In this document: positions 5,778 to 41,704 of the stretch, piece after piece | Position numbering within the stretch: the first letter of the stretch is position 1 | How the letters are laid out: every line of letters starts with the position of its first letter | DNA from: Pseudomonadota bacterium | Lineage (GTDB): Bacteria; Pseudomonadota; Gammaproteobacteria; Burkholderiales; Thiobacillaceae | Length of the DNA: 64,000 nucleotides | NCBI GenBank assembly: GCA_021820845.1 | Contig: JAKADC010000007.1 | Span: 101,300 to 165,299, forward strand | Direction: 5' to 3' | Made by a program: the position numbers and the translations under genes | The notes under the pieces: generated by a model | Seen by the model: the letters and a program-made list of their open reading frames with translations, nothing else | Told to the model about the DNA's origin: nothing | Databases searched by the model: none

Positions 5778-7223
5778 TTATTGCAGCCTGGCTTTCAGCA
5801 GCTCGTTGACCTGCGCCGGGTTGGCCTTGCCGCGGCTGGCCTTCATCACCTGGCCGACCAGCGCGTTGAAGGCCTTCTCCTTGCCGGCGCGGAACTCCTC
5901 GACCGACTTCGCGTTGGCGGCGAGCACTTCGTCGACGATCTTCTCCAGTTCGCCGGAATCGGACATCTGCTTCAGGCCGCGCGCCTCGATGATGGCGTCG
6001 ACTTCGCCGGCGCCTTCCCACAGCCCTTCGAACACCTGCTTGGCGAGCTTGCCCGAGAGCGTGCCGTCCTGGATGCGGGCAATCAGGGCGCCCAGTTGCG
6101 CGGCCGACACCGGGCTTCGCGCGATGTCGAGCTCGGCCTTGTTGAGCGCGGCGGATAACTCGCCCATCACCCAGTTGGCGGCGAGCTTGCCCTGGCCGCA
6201 CGCCTTCGCGGCGGCCTCGAAGTAATCGGCGAGCGCGCGCGACCCGGTCAACACGGCTGCGTCATAGGCCGACACGCCGTAATCGTTCTGGAAGCGCGCC
6301 TGCATCGCGGCGGGCAGTTCGGGCAGCGTCGATTTCACCCGCTCGATCCAGGCGTCGTCGAGCCTCACCGGCAGCAGGTCGGGATCGGGGAAGTAGCGGT
6401 AGTCGTGCGCCTCTTCCTTGCTGCGCATCATGCGCGTCTCGCCGCTGTCGGGATCGAACAGCACGGTGGCCTGCTCGATGCGGCCGCCGTCCTCGAGCGT
6501 CTCGATCTGCCAGCGGACTTCATAGTCGATCGCCTGCTGCAGGAAGCGGAACGAGTTGAGGTTCTTGATCTCGCGGCGGGTGCCGAATTCGGCCTGGCCC
6601 AGCGGGCGCACCGAAACGTTGGCGTCGACGCGGAAGCTGCCTTCCTGCATGTTGCCGTCGCAGATGCCGATCCAGGTCACCAGGCTATGCAGCGCACGGG
6701 CGTAGGCGACGGCCTCGGCGCTCGAACGCATCTCCGGCTCCGAGACGATCTCGAGGAGCGGCGTGCCGGCGCGGTTGAGGTCGATTCCGGTCATGCCGTG
6801 GAAGTCCTCGTGCAGCGACTTGCCGGCGTCCTCCTCCATGTGGGCGCGGGTGAGATGGATGACTCTTTCTTCCGACTGTCCTGAGCCTGTCGAAGGGACG
6901 ATGATGGTCAGCGTGCCGCCCTCGACGATGGGCTTCGCGAGCTGGCTGATCTGGTAGCCCTTCGGAAGGTCCGGGTAGAAATAGTTCTTGCGGTCGAACA
7001 CGTTGACGCGATTGAGCGTCGCGCCGATGGCGAGGCCGAACTTGATCGCGCACTCGACCGCGCCGCGGTTCAGCACCGGCAGCACGCCCGGCAGCGCGAT
7101 GTCGACGGCGGAGGCCTGCGTGTTGGGCGCGGCGCCGAAGGCGGTGCTGCTGCCGGAAAAGATCTTGGATCGGGTGGCGAGCTGGGTATGGACCTCCAGC
7201 CCGATGACGGTCTCCCATTTCAT
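5778..7223 (-). CDS. gatB: Asp-tRNA(Asn)/Glu-tRNA(Gln) amidotransferase subunit B
   Basis: [51 protein letters not shown]. Confidence 0.97.
6877..6897. repeat. REP-like short element TGTCCTGAGCCTGTCGAAGGG inserted in frame in gatB (encodes PSTGSGQ)
   Basis: The 21-mer is read directly. From memory it resembles a widespread CCTGAGCxTGTCGAAGG dispersed-repeat family. Only one copy was seen in this window. Confidence 0.55.
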
Positions 7224-8683
7224 CGCAAACCCTCCGGCGCGCGCGCATGCCAGTCGGTGACGCGCTGGTACTGATGGGCGACGTTGAGCATTTTCGCCTC
7301 GGAAAAATAGTCGCCGACGAGCTGCAGGCCGATCGGCAGGCCCTTCGAATCGAATCCGCAGGGCAGGCTCATGCCGGGCAGGCCGGCCAGGTTGGCGGGG
7401 ATCGTGTAGAGGTCGTTGAGGTACATCTCGACCGGATCGTCGGACTTCTCGCCGAGCGTGAACGCGGTGCCCGGCGCGGTCGGGCCGAGGATGACGTCGC
7501 AGGCCTTGAACGCCGCGGCGAAGTCGTCGGCGATCAGCCGGCGGATCTTTTGAGCCTGGAGATAGTAGGCGTCGTAGTAGCCGTGGCTCAGGACGTAGGC
7601 GCCGATCAGGATGCGGCGCTTGACCTCGGCGCCGAAGCCCTGCGCCCGCGTCTTCGAATACATGTCGTTGAGGTCCGCATACTCGGGCGCACGGTAGCCG
7701 TAGCGCACGCCGTCGAAGCGCGACAGGTTCGACGACGCCTCGGCGGGCGCCAGCACGTAATAGACCGGGATCGCGAGTTGCGAGTTGGCGAGCGAGATCT
7801 CGACGGTCGTCGCGCCAAGCTTCTTCAGCTCGGCGACCGCGGCCTCGACCGCGGCGGCGACGTCGCTGTTGAGCCCCTCGGCGAAGAATTCCTTCGGCAG
7901 GCCGATGCGCAGGCCCGCGAGCGGCCGGTCCAGGTCGCGCGTGTAGTCTTCCTTGTCGCGTTCCAGGCTGGTCGAATCGTTGGGGTCGAAGCCGGTCATC
8001 ACGTTCAGGAGCAGCGCGCAGTCCTCGGCCGAGGGCGCCATGGGTCCTGCCTGGTCGAGGCTGGAGGCGAACGCGATCATGCCGTAGCGCGACACCAGGC
8101 CGTAGGTCGGCTTGAGTCCCGTGATGCCGCACAGCGCGGCCGGCTGGCGGATCGAGCCGCCGGTGTCGGTGCCGGTCGCGGCGGGCGCCATGCGCGCGGC
8201 GACGCAGGCCGCGGCGCCGCCCGACGAGCCGCCGGGCACGCGAGCCGTGTCCCAGGGATTCTTCACCGCGCCGAAATGGCTCGTCTCGTTGGACGAGCCC
8301 ATGGCGAATTCGTCCATGTTGGTCTTGCCCAGGCTCGGCATGCCGGCCGCCTTGAAGCGCTGGATCACGTGCGCGTCGTAGGGCGCGACGAAGTTGGACA
8401 GCATTTTCGAACCGCAGGTGGTGAGCCAGCCGTCGGTGCAGAAGATGTCCTTGTGGGCGACCGGGACGCCCGTGAGCGGACCGCCCCGGCCGGCGGCGAT
8501 CAGCGCGTCGGCGGCGGCGGCTTCGGCCAGCGTCTTCTCGGCGTCCACGGTGATGAAGGCGTTGATCGCGGGGTTGAGCGCGGCGATGCGGTCGAGATAC
8601 TGCCGGGCGAGCTCGCGGCTGGAAATCTGCCCGGCCGCGAGCTGCGCGGCGAGCGCGGAAAGGGAGGTCTGAAGCATGGTCAT
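7220..8683 (-). CDS. gatA: Glu-tRNA(Gln) amidotransferase subunit A
   Basis: Amidase signature [35 protein letters not shown]. Confidence 0.97.
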
Positions 8684-9019: not shown

Positions 9020-10114
<1,095 letters not shown>

Positions 10115-15389: not shown

Positions 15390-16505
15390 ATGAAAATCTT
15401 CTGGCTGGCGCTCACGCTCCTGTTTTCCGCGGCGGCGTGGGCGGCCCCGCCCGTCGCCTCGTCGCGCGCCTGGATCGTGATCGATGCGGCGAGCGGGCGC
15501 GACCTGGCATCCCAGCAGGCCGACCTGCCGCTGGCGCCCGGCTCGCTGACGCAGATGATGACCGCCTACGTCCTGCTCGGCGACATCCGCAGCGGCAAGT
15601 TGCGTCTGGACCAAACCGTCACCGTGCCGCAAGCCGCGGCCGTCGCCGACGGCGCGCGCATATTCCTCAAGCCCGGCGAGAAGGTCAGCATCGACGTCCT
15701 CCTGCGCGGCATGCTGGTGGAATCGGCGAGCGACGCGACGCTCACGCTCGTGACCGCGGCCGACGGCAGCGAGGCGGCATTCGTCGAGCGCATGAACCGC
15801 GAGGCGAGGCGGCTGGGCATGACGAAAACCCGTTTCGTCAACGCGACCGGCCTCGCCGCGCCCGGTCATCAGTCGAGCGTGCGCGACCTTGCCCTGCTCG
15901 CGCGCGCACTGCTCCGCGATTTTCCGGGCCAGTCGGCATTCTTCGGCCAGAAGGAGCTGGCGTTCCAGGGCGTCACGTATTACAACGGCAACCGCCTGCT
16001 GTGGCGCGACGATACCGTGACCGGCGTGAAGGCCGGACGGACGCCGCAGGCGGGCTACTGCCTGGCGGCGTCGGCGCAGCGCGGCGACCAGCGCCGCATC
16101 GCGGTCGTGCTGGATGCGCGGTCGGATGCGCAGCGCACGCAGGATGCGCTGAAGCTCCTGAACTACGCTTTCGAGACCTTCGACAGCATCCCGCTCTATC
16201 GCGCGGGCCAGACCATCAAGATCGTCAACGTTTACCGCGGCGAGCGCGCGCTGCTGCGGATCGGGTTCGCGCAGGATTTCCATGCGGTCGTGCCCCGCGG
16301 GGCCGCGTCGCGCATGAAGGCGGAGCTCGTCACCCGGCAGCCCATCGTGGCGCCGGTGCGCAAGGGGGAACAGGTCGGCAGCCTGCGGCTCACGCTCGAC
16401 GGCCAGCCGCTCGGCGACTATCCGCTGGTCGCGCTGCACGACGTCGGCGTGGCCGGCATCCTCGGACGCGGCTGGGATTCGCTGCGGCTGTTTTTCGCGA
16501 AATGA
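15390..16505 (+). CDS. D-alanyl-D-alanine carboxypeptidase (PBP5/6, peptidase S11) homologue with degenerate catalytic motifs
   Basis: Syntenic dacA position, S11 fold-like sequence and PBP5_C-like tail, but the motifs read SLTQ, SAS and KAG. Confidence 0.85.
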   Translation: MKIFWLALTLLFSAAAWAAPPVASSRAWIVIDAASGRDLASQQADLPLAPGSLTQMMTAYVLLGDIRSGKLRLDQTVTVPQAAAVADGARIFLKPGEKVSIDVLLRGMLVESASDATLTLVTAADGSEAAFVERMNREARRLGMTKTRFVNATGLAAPGHQSSVRDLALLARALLRDFPGQSAFFGQKELAFQGVTYYNGNRLLWRDDTVTGVKAGRTPQAGYCLAASAQRGDQRRIAVVLDARSDAQRTQDALKLLNYAFETFDSIPLYRAGQTIKIVNVYRGERALLRIGFAQDFHAVVPRGAASRMKAELVTRQPIVAPVRKGEQVGSLRLTLDGQPLGDYPLVALHDVGVAGILGRGWDSLRLFFAK

Positions 16506-17365
16506 GCGTCTATCTCAACGGCCGCTTCCTGCCGCTCGGCGAGGCGAAGGTGTCGGTGCTCGACCGCGGCTTTCTCTTCGGCGACGGCGTCTACGAGGTG
16601 GTGCCGGTGTATTCGAACAAGCCGTTCCGCCTCGACGATCACCTGCGCCGATTGCAGCGCAGCCTCGACGGCATCCGGCTGGCCAACCCGCACACCATCG
16701 CCGAATGGCGCGAGCGCATCCTGCAGCTGATCGCGCTGCAGGACTTCGCCGACCAGTCGGTCTACGTGCAGGTGACGCGCGGCACGCCGGGCGAGGGGCA
16801 GCCGCCGCGTGACCACGTGTTTCCGCAAGCCACGCCGCCGACGGTATTCCTGTTCGCGCAGCCGCTCGTGACCGCCACCCCGGCGCAGAAGGCGGCGGGC
16901 GTGTGCGCCGTCAGCGCGGTCGACAATCGCTGGCTGCGCGGCGACATCAAGGCGATCTCGCTGCTCGCCAACGTCCTGCTGCGGCAGCGGGCGATCGACG
17001 CGGACTGCGCCGAAACCGTGATGCTGCGGGACGGCTTCCTCACCGAGGGCTCGGCAAGCAATATTTTCGTGGTGAAGGACGGCGTGCTGCGGACGCCGCC
17101 GGCGTCCAACCTGATGCTCACCGGCATCACCCACGACGTGGTGCTCGAACTCGCCGCCGCCCACGGCATCCCGCACGAGGTGCGCGCGATTCCCGAGGCC
17201 GAGGTGCGCGCGGCCGACGAACTGTGGATGACCTCGTCGACGCGGGAAATCCTGGCGATCGTGAAGCTCGACGGCGTGCCTGTCGGCGCCGGCGCGCCGG
17301 GACCGCTGGCGCGTCGCATGGATGCGCTGTACCAGACCTTCAAGCAGGAGGTGATGCGGGCATGA
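16502..17365 (+). CDS. dat: D-amino acid aminotransferase (class IV PLP)
   Basis: [38 protein letters not shown]. Confidence 0.88.
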
Positions 17366-17628
17366 GCCAGGAGGACACGCTGCTCGAGTTCCCCGCCGAC
17401 TTCCCGATCAAGATCATGGGCGAGCGGCGCGAGGGCTTCGCGCAAGCCATGGTCGAACTGGTCCTGCGCCACGCGCCGGATTTCAAGGCCGAAACCGTCG
17501 AAATGCGCGCGTCGCGCAGCGGCAACTACCTGTCGGTGACGTGCGTGGTGCGCGCCACCTCGAAAGCGCAGCTCGACGCGCTGTACCGCGAGATCACGTC
17601 CCACCCGTGGGTGAAGATGGCATTGTGA
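17362..17628 (+). CDS. ybeD: YbeD / DUF493 family protein
   Basis: [24 protein letters not shown]; upstream of lipB. Confidence 0.9.
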
Positions 17629-18263
17629 ACGCCGGGCGCGAAGGCGAACGCGGGGAGCGGGCGGTCGTGCGCCGCCTCGGACGGGTCGAGTACGAGCCGA
17701 CGTGGCGGGCGATGCGGGATTTCACCGCGCGGCGCACGCCGGCGACGCCGGACGAATTGTGGCTCGTCGAGCATCCGCCCGTTTACACCCAGGGACAGGC
17801 CGGCAAGCCCGAGCATCTCATCGCATCCACCGACATCCCCGTCGTGCAGATCGACCGCGGCGGCCAGATCACCTATCACGGCCCGGGGCAGGCGGTCGTC
17901 TACGTCCTGGTCGACCTGCGCCGCCGCGGCTATGGCATCCGCGAACTCGTGACGCGCATGGAACAGGCGGTGATCGACCTTCTCGCGGTCCACGGCGTCG
18001 CTGCCGAACGGCTGGCCGGCGCGCCGGGCGTGTACGTCGGCGGCGCCAAGATCGCCGCGCTGGGGCTGCGCGTCAGGCACGGCTGCACCTATCACGGGCT
18101 GGCATTCAACGTCGACATGGACCTGGCGCCGTTCGCCGCCATCAACCCCTGCGGCTACGCCGGACTGCCGGTGACGCAATGCCGCGACCTCGGGATTTCG
18201 TTGCGGTTCGCGGACGCCGGCCCGGCCCTGGCGGATGCGCTGCTCGACCGCATCTATTCTTGA
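17625..18263 (+). CDS. lipB: Lipoyl(octanoyl) transferase
   Basis: [43 protein letters not shown]; GTG start overlaps the ybeD stop. Confidence 0.96.
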
Positions 18264-18289
18264 CCCCTTCAGTCAAGCATTAGTATTCT
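18256..18289 (+). promoter_or_regulatory. IscR type-1-like dyad overlapping a sigma70 promoter (TTGACC-18-TATTCT)
   Basis: ATTCTTGACCCCTTCAGTCAAGCAT (18256-18280) versus the IscR type-1 consensus ATASYYGACTRwwwYAGTCRRSTAT: the central YYGAC-N7-GTCRR is intact. Confidence 0.65.
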
Positions 18290-18312
18290 TGTAACTTCTG
18301 ATGGAGTTACCC

Positions 18313-19428
18313 ATGCGCATCGACACCCTTCCGTCCGACCCCAAGCTGCTCATGCGCTCGATCATCCAGCGCATCGCCACCGGCCCGGACCTGTCCAAGA
18401 ACATCAGCCGCGCTGAAGCGCGTCTCGCCACCAAGGCCGTCATCGACAACCTGATCGACCCGGTGCAGGTCGGCATCTATTTCATCGCCCTGCGCATGAA
18501 GCGCGAAACGATGGACGAAAACCGCGGCGTGCTGGACGCGGTGCTCGAAACGACGCGCCGCGTCACGGCCGACGTGGACGAGGTGGTCGACATCGGCGAT
18601 CCCTACGGCGGCTACAACCGCTGTCTGCCCGCCGCACCCTTCCTCGGGCCGCTGCTGGCGGAGTTCGGGCTGCACGTGGTCAGCCACGGCCTCGACGCCG
18701 TCGCCCCGAAATACGGCGTGACCGCGCGCCACGTGCTCGAAGCCGCCGGCGTGCCGGTCGACCTCAAGCCGGAAGAGGCCGCGGCGCGGCTGGCCGATCC
18801 GTCGCTCGGCTGGACCTATCTCGATCAGGCGCAATCCAACCCCGGCCTGCACAACCTGGCCGCGCTGCGCGGAAAGATGGTCAAGCGGCAGACGCTGACC
18901 ACGGTGGAGGTGCTGTCGAGGCCGGTCGCCGGCAGAAAACGGACGCATTTCGTCACCGGCTTCGTCCACAAGCCCTATCCGCCCGTGTACGCCGAGCTTG
19001 CGCGCGAAGCGGGCTTCGATACCGCCTGCATCGTGCGCGGCGTCGAGGGCGGCGTGATCCCCTCGCTGCGCCAGACCGGCAAGTATTTTCATTACCACGA
19101 CCGCGGCGCCGAGACCGAGGCGGACATCGATCCGATGGCGCTCGGCATCGACCAGCCGATGCGTGCCGTGCCGCTGCCCGGCGCGGTCGCCGCCGAGGCG
19201 GGCGAAGACGAGATCGTCGCCGCCATCGACGTCAAGGCAGCCGCCCATGCCGCGGCCGAGGCGGGCATCCTCGCGCTCAAAGGCGACAAGGGTGCGACCT
19301 ACGATTCGCTGGTGCTGGGCGGCGCGATCATCCTGCACCATGTCGGCAAGGCGGCAAGCGTGGCCGACGCCGCAGCGCAGATTCGTGCCGTGCTGGATTC
19401 CGGCACGGCCGTCGCCAGGGTCAGGTGA
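18313..19428 (+). CDS. Glycosyltransferase family 3 / TrpD-like (YbiB/TrpD2-type) protein
   Basis: IALRMKRET N-terminal helical domain, GVEG, GFVHKPY. The TrpD GTGGD motif is replaced by GDPYGG. SD GGAG at 18303. Confidence 0.75.
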   Translation: MRIDTLPSDPKLLMRSIIQRIATGPDLSKNISRAEARLATKAVIDNLIDPVQVGIYFIALRMKRETMDENRGVLDAVLETTRRVTADVDEVVDIGDPYGGYNRCLPAAPFLGPLLAEFGLHVVSHGLDAVAPKYGVTARHVLEAAGVPVDLKPEEAAARLADPSLGWTYLDQAQSNPGLHNLAALRGKMVKRQTLTTVEVLSRPVAGRKRTHFVTGFVHKPYPPVYAELAREAGFDTACIVRGVEGGVIPSLRQTGKYFHYHDRGAETEADIDPMALGIDQPMRAVPLPGAVAAEAGEDEIVAAIDVKAAAHAAAEAGILALKGDKGATYDSLVLGGAIILHHVGKAASVADAAAQIRAVLDSGTAVARVR

Positions 19429-19736
19429 TGAGCGAATACGTCGCCGTCGCCGCCGCCGACGAACTCAAGCCGGCCGAGATGAAGCGCGTCGTCGTCGGCG
19501 GCAAGCGCCTGTTGCTGTGCAACTCGAACGGCACGCATTACGTCGTCGACGAGATGTGCAGCCACGAGGATTCGTCGCTGTATCTGGGATGCATCAAGGA
19601 CGGCAGGATCAAGTGCTCGCTGCACGGCAGCTACTTCGATCTCGCCACCGGGCAGCCCACCTGCGAGCCCGCCGAGGAGCCGATCCGGACTTATCCGGTG
19701 AAGGTCGAAGCCGGGCGGATCTGGGTCAAGGCCTGA
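19428..19736 (+). CDS. Rieske [2Fe-2S] ferredoxin
   Basis: CSH...CSLH Rieske ligands; TGATG overlap with the upstream gene. Confidence 0.92.
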
Positions 19737-19836
19737 CCCGGTCGTCGTTCCCTCCCCGGGACGAGCCTGCGCCCGGCGCCGCGAGTCGCCGGACGCATGG
19801 GCTAAAATCCCGTTTCGATATCCTTGCGAGTCCGTC

Positions 19837-20763
19837 ATGGCAGACCCCCTCCAGCACAAAGGCGCCGCGAAAACCGCGCGCATCCCGATCAAGATCGTGC
19901 AACAGCCGCGCATGCGCCTGCCGTCGTGGATCCGCGCCAAGTCGCCCAACGTGCCGAACGTCGCACGGCTGAAGGGCATCCTGCGCGAGGCGAAGCTGCA
20001 TACGGTGTGCGAGGAAGCGTCGTGCCCCAACCTGGGTGAATGCTTCGGCCACGGCACTGCGACCTTCATGGTCCTCGGCGACCTCTGCACGCGGCGCTGC
20101 CCGTTCTGCGACGTCGGCCACGGCACGCCGCTGCCGCCCGATACCGACGAGCCGCGCCATCTCGCCGAGACGATCGCGGTGATGGCGCTGAAATACGTGG
20201 TGATCACGAGCGTCGATCGCGACGACCTGCGCGACGGCGGCGCCGGGCATTTTGCGCAGTGCATCGCGGCGGTGCGCGAGGCCTCGCCGGCCACCCGCAT
20301 CGAGATCCTCGCGCCGGATTTCCGCGGCCGCCTCGACAAGGCGCTCGACGCGCTCGACGCCGCGCCGCCCGACGTGATGAACCACAACCTGGAAACCGTG
20401 CCGCGCCTGTACAAGGCGGCGCGTCCGGGCGCGGATTACGCGCATTCGCTGAAGCTCCTCAAGGACTTCAAGGCGCGCCACCCCGGCATTCCGACCAAAT
20501 CCGGCCTGATGCTGGGGCTCGGAGAGGAGGACGACGAGATTCTCGAGGTGATGCGCGACCTGCGCGCGCACGACGTCGACATGCTGACGCTCGGCCAGTA
20601 CCTGCAGCCCTCGCAGCACCACCTGCCGGTGCTGCGCTTCGTGACGCCCGAACGCTTCGCCCGGTTCGAAGAGGAGGCGCTCGCAATGGGCTTCAGGCAC
20701 GCCGCCTGCGGGCCGATGGTGCGATCGAGCTATCACGCCGACCGCCAGGCGGCCGGCATCTGA
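19837..20763 (+). CDS. lipA: Lipoyl synthase
   Basis: [12 protein letters not shown] (auxiliary cluster), CTRRCPFC (radical SAM), RSSY. Confidence 0.98.
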
Positions 20764-21549
20764 TCATTTCAGCAGCCGCCGCCGGGTCAGCGCCAGCGCG
20801 ACGACATAGCCGAGGCTGCCGTAGATCAGCAGCGCCGCGACGTGGGGGACGATGTCGTCGGGCACGCGGCCGACGACCAGGGGACGCGCCAGATCGATGG
20901 CGTGGGTGAGCGGCAGCCAGGAGGAGACGCCCTGCACCGCGGCAGGAAGCTGCGAGACGGGGAAGAACACGCCGCACAGCAGCACCATGGGCGTGATCAC
21001 CAGCGTGAAGTAATAGAGAAAGAAGTCGTAGCTGGGCGACACCGCGTTCATCACCAGCCCCAGCCCGCCGAAACAGAAACCGACCAGCGCGACGACCGGG
21101 ACGATCCACAGCGTCATCCAGAAATCGCCGTACAGGCCGAGCCCCCAGATCACCGCGAGGATCGCCAGCCCGGACAGCAGACTCTTGGACGCCGCCCAGG
21201 TCAGCTCGCCGAGCATGACGTCGTCTAGCGTGAGCGGCGCGTTGAGGATTGCGTCCCAGGTGCGCTGCACGTGCATGCGCGAAAAGCTCGAATAGAGCAC
21301 CTCGAAGGTGGCGGCGTTCATCGTGCTGTAGGCCACCGTGCCTGCCGCGAGGAAGGTCAGGTAGGGCATGCCGCCCACATCCGGCAGCAGGCTGCCGAGG
21401 CCGTAGCCCAGTCCCAGCATGTAGAGCATGGGGTCGGCGAGGTTGCCGAGAATGGACGGAATCGCGAGCTTCTTCCACACGAGGTAGTTGCGCTGCCACA
21501 CCGGGACGAAGCGCCACGACAGAAGCGGAAACCGGAAAAAATGGCGCAT
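20764..21549 (-). CDS. ABC-2 permease, NodJ-like
   Basis: Six hydrophobic segments, TWDAILNAP, LFFPVSQLP-type motifs. Confidence 0.85.
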   Translation of the reverse strand: MRHFFRFPLLSWRFVPVWQRNYLVWKKLAIPSILGNLADPMLYMLGLGYGLGSLLPDVGGMPYLTFLAAGTVAYSTMNAATFEVLYSSFSRMHVQRTWDAILNAPLTLDDVMLGELTWAASKSLLSGLAILAVIWGLGLYGDFWMTLWIVPVVALVGFCFGGLGLVMNAVSPSYDFFLYYFTLVITPMVLLCGVFFPVSQLPAAVQGVSSWLPLTHAIDLARPLVVGRVPDDIVPHVAALLIYGSLGYVVALALTRRRLLK

Positions 21550-40565: not shown

Positions 40566-40591
40566 TTTGTATGGAAATTTGATATATTATC

Positions 40592-40620
40592 TGGATATTC
40601 GGACAGGATTGTTTTATATT
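40592..40620 (+). promoter_or_regulatory. Putative sigma70 promoter for rrf2-sco in an AT-rich island
   Basis: TGGATA-17-TATATT; TATATTATC occurs twice (40583-91, 40615-23). Confidence 0.45.
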
Positions 40621-40649
40621 ATCCCCATTTGTTCCCTTGGGGTAAATGG

Positions 40650-41114
40650 ATGATCCTATCACGCACCAGTCAGTATGCCGTCCAGGCGCTGATATACATG
40701 GCTACCCAGCCAGACGCCACGCCGGTGCTGAACAAGGATATCGCTGCCAAGCTGGGCGTGCCCGCTCCGTATCTGGCCAAGATCCTGCAAAGCCTCGCCA
40801 AGGGCAACCTGCTGTTTTCCTTTCGCGGCCGGCTCGGCGGATTCTGTCTGCGTGAAGGTGGTGAGAAGATCACGCTGATGCAGATCCTGCTCCTGACCGA
40901 AGGGCCGGCCTTTACCCAGAGCTGCCTGCTGGGCCTCAAGAAGTGCAGCGACGAAACCGCATGCCCGCTGCATTTCCGCTGGGTCCCGGTGAAGAAGAAA
41001 ATCATCGATCTCCTGCTGGAAACGACGCTGGACAAGCTGGCGAAGGCCGTCGAATCCGGAAAATACCGGCTCGCAGACGTTCCTGGAGAGCTGTTCGAGC
41101 AGATCAAGCTATGA
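40650..41114 (+). CDS. Rrf2 family transcriptional regulator, probably Fe-S binding
   Basis: SRTSQYAVQAL, wHTH PYLAKIL, GRLGGF, C-x6-C-x5-C-x2-H. Confidence 0.92.
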   Translation: MILSRTSQYAVQALIYMATQPDATPVLNKDIAAKLGVPAPYLAKILQSLAKGNLLFSFRGRLGGFCLREGGEKITLMQILLLTEGPAFTQSCLLGLKKCSDETACPLHFRWVPVKKKIIDLLLETTLDKLAKAVESGKYRLADVPGELFEQIKL

Positions 41115-41704
41115 CGCGTCGCCTGGTCGCGGTCTGGCTCGCAGCGCTCATCGCGCTGACCGCCTGCCAGCCCGCCGCCCAGCCGCCCGCGTTCAAGGCA
41201 ACCGACATCACGGGCGCCAGCTTCGCGCAGGATTTCCGGCTGACCGATCACAACGGCCGCGTGCGGACGCTCGCGGACTTCAGGGGCAAGGCCGTCGCGA
41301 TCTTTTTCGGCTATACGCACTGTCCCGATGTGTGCCCGACGACGCTGTCCGATTTTGCCGCCGCGCTCAAACTGTTGGGCCCGCAGGCCGACCGCGTTCA
41401 GGTGATTTTCGTGACCCTGGACCCGCAGCGCGATACGCCGGCCATCCTGAAACAGTTTGTCCCTGCCTTCAACCCGGGCTTTCTCGGCATGTACACCGAC
41501 CCCGAAGCATTGAAGCGCTTGGCGAAAGAATACAAAGTGGTCTATCAAAAAACTTCGGTCAAATCGGCGGACGATTACCTGCTCGACCACAGCGCGGGGA
41601 CTTACGTCTACGATCCCCAAGGGCGTCTGAGGCTTCTCATGCCATATGGGAGCAGTCCCGAGGCGATCGCCCACGATCTGAAGCTGTTGCTGCAGACGTC
41701 CTGA
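41111..41704 (+). CDS. senC: SCO1/SenC copper chaperone lipoprotein
   Basis: Lipobox LTAC, FGYTHCPDVCP, LDHS. Confidence 0.92.
   Translation: MTRRLVAVWLAALIALTACQPAAQPPAFKATDITGASFAQDFRLTDHNGRVRTLADFRGKAVAIFFGYTHCPDVCPTTLSDFAAALKLLGPQADRVQVIFVTLDPQRDTPAILKQFVPAFNPGFLGMYTDPEALKRLAKEYKVVYQKTSVKSADDYLLDHSAGTYVYDPQGRLRLLMPYGSSPEAIAHDLKLLLQTS

Follow-up and report, generated by a model that had tools for sequence, protein, structure and literature searches.

The stretch of DNA analysed here, referred to as the window, comprises 64 kb of a Thiobacillus genome and contains, all on the forward strand, lipB, a GT3-like gene, a Rieske gene and lipA in that order. The octanoyl transferase gene lipB (17625..18263) scored 305 bits with the NCBIfam LipB model NF010922 (cut-off 235). 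Its start, a GTG overlapping the ybeD stop, is approximate, and its TGA stop (18261-18263) falls inside the -35 hexamer of a promoter for the genes that follow. The second gene (18313..19428) encodes a protein of 371 amino acids with the GT3 fold (TrpD fold) that was recognized by the Pfam families PF02885 (Glycos_trans_3N) and PF00591 (Glycos_transf_3). The start codon was placed at ATG 18313, preceded by a GGAG at 18303-18306; homologues of 370-371 amino acids begin at the corresponding ATG and an upstream ATG at 18301 was rejected for that reason. The third gene (19428..19736) encodes a Rieske-type [2Fe-2S] ferredoxin of 102 amino acids (PF00355, 65.8 bits against a threshold of 20.3). Stop and start of these two genes overlap in a TGATG at 19426-19430 that is kept in most related loci, and the sequence supports a translationally coupled pair. 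The lipoyl synthase gene lipA (19837..20763; TIGR00510, 441.6 bits) completes the locus. The description given in the first-pass annotation, a TGATG-coupled GT3-like and Rieske pair between lipB and lipA, was borne out by gene order, profile matches and the overlap itself. No Rfam families, terminators or structured RNAs were found in the intergenic regions of the locus.

The ligands of the Rieske protein, C44-S-H46 and C63-S-L-H66, follow the CxH-X15-17-CxxH pattern. The nearest curated families were HcaC (81.3 bits, cut-off 113) and AndAb (71.6 bits, cut-off 150), with which the protein shares a length of roughly 100 amino acids, CxH...CxxH ligands and the lack of the disulfide cysteines found in bc1-type Rieske proteins. 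It differs from both in scoring below their equivalog cut-offs and in having a GT3-fold protein as its constant neighbour. No oxygenase or reductase gene was found near the Rieske gene in any of the neighbourhoods read.

The AlphaFold2 model of the GT3-fold protein had a pLDDT of 93.7 and was matched by Foldseek to TrpD structures at TM 0.71-0.85 and approximately 20% identity. The two-domain GT3 fold of TrpD is thereby shared, and the LRxKxE helix motif and the counterpart of the arginine that binds anthranilate are also retained. Missing, however, are the motifs of TrpD for PRPP and Mg2+, as alignment to Xanthomonas TrpD (4hkm) placed GDPYG, SHGL and GGV (within E-G-G-V) where GTGGD, KHGN and DE are expected. 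Anthranilate phosphoribosyltransferase was rejected as an identity on account of the absent PRPP motifs and of a TIGR01245 score of 65.5 bits against a cut-off of 199.05. No trp genes were seen around the pair in the contexts read. The protein in fact scored below every NCBIfam cut-off, the best model being PRK07394, a 'hypothetical protein' family (132.8 against 287), and its clade has invariant residues of its own (R61, K63, E65, E69, W167, R186, K191, R192, H219, Y222 and E245-G-G). A TrpD fold without PRPP motifs is also what YbiB/TrpD2 has, and the anthranilate phosphoribosyltransferase label that public databases give the protein is probably mistaken.

The resemblance to YbiB extends to PxYxG and V-HG motifs common to both and to 26% identity over approximately 190 residues. 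Each of the two proteins is moreover paired with an Fe-S protein, as ybiB follows dinG in E. coli and DinG is an Fe-S helicase. The helicase neighbourhood of YbiB has been described (PMC5445326). The GT3-fold protein nevertheless fell short of the YbiB cut-off (NF006005; 85.5 of 185 bits), its partner is a Rieske ferredoxin rather than a helicase, and the operator of its gene is a predicted IscR box rather than a LexA box; no dinG-type helicase was found near the pair in any context read. The calculated pI was 6.3 for the GT3-fold protein and 6.4 for YbiB. Net charge was discarded as a clue to DNA binding since these values are practically the same. A Rieske domain was looked for in the N-terminal extension of about 100 amino acids carried by distant GT3 homologues and was not found, that is, no domain fusion was observed.

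Between positions 17300 and 20900 one promoter-like site was found, while shuffled sequences had 0.2 on average. This predicted sigma-70-type promoter (18260..18289, forward strand) consists of TTGACC at 18260-18265, a spacer of 18 nt and TATTCT at 18284-18289. Depth in metatranscriptome contigs steps up at the lipB/GT3 boundary and is approximately 4-10 times higher over the pair than over lipB. Superimposed on it is a predicted IscR type-1 operator, ATTCTTGACCCCTTCAGTCAAGCAT (18256..18280), which matches 20 of the 25 positions of the consensus ATASYYGACTRWWWYAGTCRRSTAT taken from PMC6599224 and includes a perfect CTTGAC-N7-GTCAAG dyad. The box extends over the -35 hexamer and the larger part of the spacer, leaving 3 nt to the -10 hexamer, and is thereby positioned to occlude the predicted promoter. 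Within the window it was the sole site scoring at least 20/25, and any site of at least that score occurred in just 1.5% of 200 Markov-simulated 64-kb sequences. No other box in the window scored above 18/25; the 18/25 sites at 6855 and 42094, the latter inside ccoN, were dismissed as chance-level matches. The window's box is of a more degenerate kind, with a GC-rich centre (CCCTTC) as opposed to the AT-rich centre of the consensus. Footprinted IscR sites of P. aeruginosa are only 64-76% identical to the same consensus (PMC6599224).

Comparison to related loci showed the box at the same place in 65 of 66 Thiobacillus-type loci, 57-63 bp before the ATG (58 bp in 54 of the 65); the earlier observation of a 25-bp type-1-like dyad holding the -35 stands. 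Scores of these orthologous boxes ranged over 17-24/25 with a mode of 23, were 21-24/25 in 57 of the 65 loci and lay mostly above the 20/25 of the window. The box also stays with the pair in loci where extra genes separate the pair from lipB. The Thiobacillus variant ATAGTTGACTGATTTACTCGGATAT is identical at 21 of 25 positions to E. coli iscR site B (NC_000913) and, again at 21 of 25, to the footprinted P. aeruginosa site B (PMC6599224).

The specificity of the motif was evaluated by scanning metagenomes for the box core with the pattern ATAGTTGACNNNNTTACTCGG. This resulted in 120 matches, 85 of which were upstream of iscR; among the others, 8 preceded cysE-like, 6 ErpA-like, 3 NfuA-like, 2 SufB-like and 2 IscA-type genes, and 1 lay at the GT3 pair. 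For most of the gene classes NCBIfam confirmed the identity of one representative, and of two in the case of ErpA. Roughly 106 of the 120 matches (approximately 88%) hence precede iscR or genes of the cysE, erpA, nfuA, sufB and iscA type. The box is also carried by betaproteobacterial iscR genes (Vogesella, Sulfuritalea and Burkholderiales MAGs), and a trmJ-cysE-iscRSUA-hscBA locus from another taxon, found via a homology search with betaproteobacterial IscR, has two boxes in tandem. IscR type-1 control of the pair is, on these comparisons of sequence, strongly supported because the box is conserved in the Thiobacillus loci and because matches to its core concentrate at iscR and Fe-S promoters.

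The conservation could in principle have another origin. The left half-site doubles as the -35 hexamer; TTGAC is invariant across the related loci, and a TAGTAT(T/C)CT region recurs in them. Part of the conservation of this half-site could be that of the promoter, and the dyad might be plain promoter sequence without any Fe-S-dependent control. Alternatively, the dyad could be bound by some other regulator, for example an Rrf2 paralogue such as the one encoded at 40629-41114, which has a Cys-x6-Cys-x5-Cys-x2-His motif and is the only Rrf2 protein of the window, where no iscR gene was found. The right half-site argues against both ideas, as it lies in the promoter spacer and is nevertheless conserved in a manner that fits the IscR consensus (T18 invariant, G20 and G21 near-invariant). 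The same holds for the specificity of the core motif for iscR and Fe-S biogenesis promoters in the unbiased scan. The Rrf2 protein was furthermore rejected for this role. With 63 bits, where the IscR model requires 207.55, it does not qualify as an IscR orthologue, its gene adjoins SCO1 and the cbb3 oxidase genes ccoNOP, and no such box was found in its upstream region. Taken as one alternative, a different regulator or a plain promoter is therefore considered quite improbable. A homology search seeded with betaproteobacterial IscR returned no match labelled Thiobacillus, and a cognate IscR in Thiobacillus is assumed here.

Outside Thiobacillus the box and the pair part company. Upstream of the orthologues from Gallionellaceae, from a lineage at 70% identity and from more distant relatives, the best sites scored 15-18/25, which is background; the exception was one locus (L077) with a 20/25 site at -130, whose relative (L068) scores 18. 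The Gallionellaceae orthologues have no box, and Fe-S responsiveness therefore does not extend to the whole family. The two genes themselves were neighbours in each of the 66 Thiobacillus-type loci whose sequence extended far enough and also in 15 Gallionellaceae-type loci, in the 70%-identity lineage and in relatives at 51-57% identity, where the order of the two genes is reversed. Every relative of at least 51% identity whose neighbouring DNA was read in fact had a Rieske gene next to its GT3 gene, and among the Gallionellaceae contexts these two were the only genes in common. One Gallionellaceae genome has the pair between nifHDK-fdx-DUF4202 and draTG/nifENX, as would be expected if the pair belonged to nitrogenase maturation or another specific Fe-S-rich pathway and its position in Thiobacillus were secondary. 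This arrangement was however confined to a single genome (L071, L081 and L082 are identical sequence) among the 15 Gallionellaceae-type loci, and the Thiobacillus-type loci examined yielded no nif genes. Such a pathway-specific role is highly improbable.

The neighbourhood of lipA invites a further explanation. The auxiliary [4Fe-4S] cluster of LipA is consumed at every turnover, and the pair might assist lipoate synthesis in response to Fe-S status, sharing both regulation and transcript with lipA, with the Rieske protein giving LipA electrons or a cluster. IscR control would suit an enzyme with such a high Fe-S demand, and the pair sits between lipB and lipA in Thiobacillus-type loci wherever these two genes were found. 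In the window neither a terminator-like site nor any unusual structure was found in the 100-nt spacer between the Rieske gene and lipA; read-through from the pair into lipA is therefore possible in this genome. In three further loci (L039, L052 and L058) lipA begins only 36-37 bp after the Rieske stop, and metatranscriptome contigs from relatives bridge the 3' end of the Rieske gene to the 5' end of lipA. A local link between the pair and lipA may thus exist in some strains.

Gap lengths and promoters speak against a general link of this kind. In 41 of the 57 loci measured (56 related loci and the window), 1.1-1.4 kb separate the pair from lipA, and in the one such gap that was read (L004) two genes lie on the opposite strand, one of them a redoxin gene. 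In addition lipA retains a conserved element of its own, GGCTAAAAT, present in the window as CATGGGCTAAAAT (19796..19808, forward strand). Its -10 hexamer TAAAAT at 19803-19808, listed in the first-pass annotation as a possible -10 of lipA, proved to be real and conserved in relatives: the majority of the 57 loci, with short and long gaps alike, have CAT(a/g)GGCTA(A/G)AAT or a near variant approximately 30-45 bp upstream of the lipA start codon. In L004 the CAT of this element serves as start codon for a minus-strand gene of 187 aa. The window seems to have lost a minus-strand gene here by deletion, with the CAT left over as its start codon. The persistence of minus-strand gene remnants in short-gap loci suggests that the long-gap arrangement is ancestral.

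Further counterevidence came from the survey of gene neighbourhoods. Neither lipA nor lipB nor isc genes were found near the pair in the 15 Gallionellaceae-type loci (77-80% identity), in the 70%-identity lineage or in the 51-57% relatives. Linkage to lipA is accordingly limited to one genus, and because of this it is explained by descent. An Fe-S-responsive module for lipoate synthesis had been proposed in the first-pass annotation, in which missing linkage to lipA was counted against the idea, and it is this that the survey encountered in the Gallionellaceae and the distant lineages. Of that proposal the predicted IscR control and the coupled pair are upheld, whereas the role in lipoate synthesis is not. 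What connects the pair to the sacrificial cluster of LipA is solely synteny at the level of a genus, lipA is a neighbour rather than a demonstrated part of the module, and a lipoate-specific function is regarded as unlikely.

We favour instead, with a probability of roughly 65%, an autonomous two-gene operon under an IscR operator that serves general Fe-S homeostasis or stress rather than LipA specifically. The operon would make a TrpD2-like GT3-fold protein and a Rieske [2Fe-2S] ferredoxin of the low-potential type, coupled through the TGATG, and in the Thiobacillaceae it would have come under a canonical IscR type-1 operator placed over the -35 hexamer and spacer. With an ample supply of Fe-S clusters, holo-IscR would sit on the operator and keep RNA polymerase from the promoter. 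Under cluster shortage or oxidation IscR would lose its cluster and leave the type-1 site, and the pair would be expressed. Both the binding of IscR to the box and the direction of its effect are what we infer from comparison with known operators. The two proteins would most likely cooperate, either as a complex or as a donor/acceptor couple, with the Rieske protein as an electron carrier and the GT3-fold partner as a ligand-binding or nucleic-acid-binding subunit instead of a phosphoribosyltransferase. Their position between lipB and lipA would reflect inheritance within Thiobacillus and not functional coupling. In the genome of the window a deletion would have brought lipA within 100 bp, making IscR-dependent read-through possible, though secondary.

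The model draws on the type-1 operators of iscR, erpA and nfuA in E. coli and P. aeruginosa, which are likewise 25-bp AT-flanked dyads matching ATASYYGACTRWWWYAGTCRRSTAT and for which, by analogy, repression by holo-IscR would be the expected logic here. Site B of iscR in E. coli and site B in P. aeruginosa overlap the -35 hexamer and spacer just as the box of the pair does. Differences are that the pair does not consist of known Fe-S biogenesis genes, that its promoter has one site whereas iscR promoters have two in tandem, and that its predicted site overlaps the 3' end of lipB. A functional analogy, though no more than that, is offered by Fdx of the isc operon, a small [2Fe-2S] carrier whose gene is IscR-controlled and induced at Fe-S scarcity; Fdx has however a fold and ligands of the plant/adrenodoxin type in contrast to the Rieske type found here.

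IscR regulons are the main guide to the proteins that are needed when Fe-S clusters run short, and a strongly predicted new member made up of two uncharacterized proteins is a concrete lead. In the literature searched, no report was found of a GT3/TrpD-like protein being paired with a Rieske protein, nor of either belonging to an IscR regulon. The GT3 clade is widespread and is labelled anthranilate phosphoribosyltransferase in public databases despite its absent catalytic motifs; flagging this mislabel avoids wrong pathway calls in sulfur- and iron-oxidizing autotrophs. The constant pairing with a Rieske protein, together with the known pairing of YbiB and DinG, suggests by analogy that TrpD2-type proteins work with Fe-S partners. 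More tentatively, and with considerable doubt, the TrpD2-like protein and the Rieske ferredoxin could be a previously unrecognized two-component effector of the Fe-S stress response. One form it may take is a redox-active module, a counterpart of the DinG-YbiB pairing, for the repair or re-reduction of damaged clusters or their targets, possibly at nucleic acid. If true, it would provide the first physiological handle on the long-uncharacterized TrpD2 branch of the TrpD fold.

On the forward strand, the region reads dacC, dat (16502-17365), ybeD/DUF493 (17362-17628), lipB (about 17625-18263), a GT3-fold gene (18313-19428), a Rieske ferredoxin gene (19428-19736) and lipA (19837-20763). Its source is a Thiobacillus-like betaproteobacterium, with top protein matches at 83-89% identity (Thiobacillus MAGs and isolates) and one further sequence at 98%. 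The start of the GT3-fold gene was set at the ATG at 18313, with GGAG ahead of it (18303-18306), rather than at the ATG at 18301, because homologues are 370-371 aa in length. The stop codon of this gene and the start codon of the Rieske gene share TGATG (19426-19430), an overlap retained in most related loci. Gene order and junction confirm the first-pass annotation of a translationally coupled GT3-like and Rieske pair between lipB and lipA.

Between lipB and the GT3-fold gene lie 49 bp that contain the sole sigma-70-like promoter found within 17300-20900, predicted on the forward strand as TTGACC (18260-18265) and TATTCT (18284-18289) with an 18-nt spacer, the -35 hexamer enclosing the lipB stop codon. 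The 25-mer at 18256-18280, ATTCTTGACCCCTTCAGTCAAGCAT, shares 20 of 25 positions with the IscR type-1 consensus ATASYYGACTRWWWYAGTCRRSTAT, which was verified in PMC6599224. No other site scoring at least 20 was found anywhere in the 64-kb window, and any such site occurred in 1.5% of simulated 64-kb sequences. The comparison covered the window and 65 loci from public genomes, all of Thiobacillus type; 65 of these 66 keep the box, at 57-63 bp 5' of the ATG and in 54 cases at 58 bp. Scores span 17-24 of 25, most often 23; the window copy is among the weaker boxes, typical Thiobacillus forms being ATTCTTGACTGATTTAGTCGGTTAT and ATAGTTGACTGATTTACTCGGATAT. The right half-site, which lies inside the promoter spacer, is conserved in these loci, T18 being invariant and G20 and G21 nearly so; the spacer of ordinary promoters is free to vary. 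The box also remains with the pair at loci in which inserted LuxR-type and DsrE-like genes separate the pair from lipB. At the level of sequence, this comparative conservation is the decisive evidence for the predicted operator.

The intervening genes, a minus-strand LuxR-type regulator and a DsrE/DrsE_2-family sulfur-relay-like gene, lie between lipB and the box in loci L005, L032, L041, L050 and L052, while L051 has no more than a regulator remnant. A final dozen bases similar to the 3' end of lipB (gcgatctattc) still precede the box in the insertion loci, and the interval from lipB to lipA behaves as a hotspot for insertions. The sole Thiobacillus-type locus without the box is that of Thiobacillus sp. 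63-78 (L059), where box and TTGAC -35 are replaced by unrelated GC-rich sequence; this natural operator-loss variant would be a useful comparison strain.

Site B of the E. coli K-12 iscR promoter, ATAGTTGACCAATTTACTCGGGAAT, read directly from the promoter, is identical to a Thiobacillus box variant at 21 of 25 positions, and the right arm of site A, TCAGTCAAG, is the same as that of the window box. The footprinted site B of P. aeruginosa likewise agrees with the Thiobacillus variant at 21 of 25 positions (PMC6599224). Public metagenome contigs were scanned with the core pattern ATAGTTGACNNNNTTACTCGG, giving at least 120 matches. Among the matches listed, 85 were followed on the same strand, at a distance of 38-152 bp, by an IscR homologue, and the remaining classes comprised serine acetyltransferase cysE at the head of cysE-iscR operons (8), ErpA-like (6), NfuA-like (3), SufB-like (2), IscA-type carriers (2), rpoH (2) and the GT3-Rieske pair on a Thiobacillaceae contig (1), where NCBIfam confirmed one representative for most classes (two for ErpA) and other members were assigned by N-terminal similarity. 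The same promoter layout with the box was observed at betaproteobacterial IscR genes of Vogesella, Sulfuritalea/Rhodocyclales and Burkholderiales MAGs. Based on the scan and these iscR promoters, the motif is highly specific for IscR regulons, and the promoter of the Thiobacillus GT3-Rieske pair resembles a copied iscR-type promoter. IscR type-1 control of the pair, as the first-pass annotation had proposed, is a prediction strongly supported by the match to the consensus, its conservation and the specificity of the motif.

The scan also returned a perfect core box about 100 bp upstream of rpoH (sigma-32) on two metagenome contigs (L119, L182) and, among the matches listed, boxes before a 449-459-aa membrane protein (L109, L181) and a 705-aa protein without assigned family (L194), all possibly unrecognised IscR targets in other bacteria. 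In a Burkholderiales MAG with a cysE-iscR operon (L216), the iscR promoter (9920-10000) follows cysE immediately and carries two type-1 boxes in tandem; a second Rrf2 gene on this contig heads a divergent sufA-sufBCD-sufS-sufU-nfu cluster.

The only Rrf2 gene of the window (40629-41114; motif C-x6-C-x5-C-x2-H), earlier named as a candidate regulator, was rejected as IscR, with 63 bits where the cut-off is 207.55. It adjoins SCO1 and ccoNOP-ccoG, and its upstream region holds AT-rich repeats (40570-40630) and no IscR-type box. The order through 46694 is Rrf2, the SCO1/SenC copper chaperone (41111-41704), then ccoN, ccoO, ccoP and ccoG (cbb3 oxidase).

The neighbourhood survey identified the pair itself as the conserved unit. 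The GT3-fold and Rieske genes are adjacent in every Thiobacillus-type locus with enough sequence, in 15 Gallionellaceae-type loci (77-80% identity; same order, similar junction) and in a 70%-identity lineage with unrelated neighbours (methyltransferase, KTSC, Fic and restriction-modification genes). Relatives at 51-57% have them adjacent but reversed, Rieske then GT3, and at 42-44% the Rieske gene is 2 kb off in a divergent cysG operon, or absent. Beyond the pair, the Gallionellaceae loci have no gene family in common. In one of these genomes only (L071/L081), the pair lies within a nif cluster, ordered in L081 (2438-16724) as nifHDK, 2Fe-2S ferredoxin, DUF4202, a 47-aa ORF, the pair, draG/draT, nifENX, DUF269, Rop-like, fdx and nifQ. 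None of the non-Thiobacillus loci had lipA, lipB or isc genes near the pair, and IscR-consensus scores upstream were at background. Judged by these comparisons, the predicted IscR control and the lipB/lipA location are Thiobacillaceae-specific additions. Of the linkages named for survey in the first-pass annotation, that of GT3 with Rieske held beyond Thiobacillus and that with lipA did not; synteny gives no support to a module dedicated to lipoate synthesis, which is a minority possibility for particular strains.

The Rieske-lipA interval measures 1.1-1.4 kb in 41 of 57 loci (56 related plus the window). In L004 the gap (7425-8623) holds two minus-strand genes, which encode a redoxin/TlpA-like protein of the periplasm and a secreted protein of 187 aa; it was read in detail in this locus only, the other long gaps being assumed alike from their length and conserved flanks. 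In most loci, whether the gap is short or long, the lipA ATG is preceded at about 30-45 bp by the motif CAT(a/g)GGCTA(A/G)AAT or something close to it; in L004 the CAT of this motif is the start codon of the 187-aa gene. The window retains the motif (19796-19808) without the two genes, so its 100-bp spacing is most simply read as a deletion derivative of the long-gap arrangement. The CAT remnant and the lipA -10 element are all that is left in 19737-19836, and other relatives show intermediate remnants. The -10 that the first-pass annotation had allowed lipA (TAAAAT, 19803-08) is kept. In three loci lipA follows the Rieske gene by 36-37 bp without the motif, and RNA-derived contigs of sludge metatranscriptomes run from the 3' end of the Rieske gene into the 5' end of lipA; lipA is therefore probably transcribed in some strains by read-through from the predicted IscR-controlled promoter. 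Partial read-through is possible in the window as well, since no terminator or unusual structure was found in its spacer. Metatranscriptome contigs showed the pair at roughly 4-10x lipB depth with a step at the lipB/GT3 boundary, which, contig depth being a poor measure of expression, is weak evidence that the pair is expressed in situ.

Public annotation (NCBI, JGI) designates the GT3-fold protein (window 18313-19428; public entries P0002-P0120) an anthranilate phosphoribosyltransferase. It falls under all curated cut-offs: TrpD (65.5 vs 199), YbiB (85.5 vs 185) and PRK07394 'hypothetical protein' (132.8 vs 287). A confident AlphaFold2 model (41 sequences, pLDDT 93.7) superposes on TrpD structures at TM 0.71-0.85 with only about 20% identity. 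In HMMER alignments GDPYG, SHGL and E-G-G-V stand in place of the TrpD motifs GTGGD, KHGN and Mg2+-binding DE, and these regions resemble PSYNG, VHG and TEGEV of YbiB. The scores, the low identity and the missing PRPP and Mg2+ motifs argue against the label, which is likely a systematic misannotation. The protein is TrpD2-like in being without transferase machinery, yet forms a separate clade of about 147 representatives (50% clustering, E below 1e-30) with invariant R61, K63, E65, E69, W167, R186, K191, R192, H219, Y222 and E245-G-G. Distant members of 420-460 aa (P0207, P0223, P0229, P0235 and similar) are extended at the N-terminus by roughly 100 aa with no Pfam match; the 'KKKGTGP-MgK-L' helix motif typical of the N-terminus of the family recurs in this extension, which therefore has the appearance of an internal duplication.

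The Rieske protein has intact cluster ligands (C44-x-H46, C63-x-x-H66); its nearest families are the dioxygenase ferredoxins HcaC and AndAb, with scores below both cut-offs. The disulfide cysteines of bc1-type Rieske proteins are absent, and a low-potential ferredoxin type is therefore expected.

In the proposed mechanism holo-IscR would cover the -35 hexamer and spacer and repress transcription, and Fe-S shortage or oxidative stress, through loss of the IscR [2Fe-2S] cluster, would lift repression. Translational coupling would then yield the two proteins together, and they would act as partners: electrons would be carried by the Rieske protein, and the GT3-fold protein would be a binding partner of non-catalytic or non-PRT type. 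Making more Fe-S protein under cluster scarcity is sensible mainly for Fe-S homeostasis, which the Fdx of the isc operon serves, and a general Fe-S stress role is accordingly the one we would favour. A suggestive parallel is the co-location of E. coli ybiB with dinG, whose product is an Fe-S helicase. We infer partnership, electron carriage and stress role alike. The analysis makes a well-supported addition to the IscR-type regulon, of two proteins of as yet unassigned function, and corrects a widespread annotation as anthranilate phosphoribosyltransferase.
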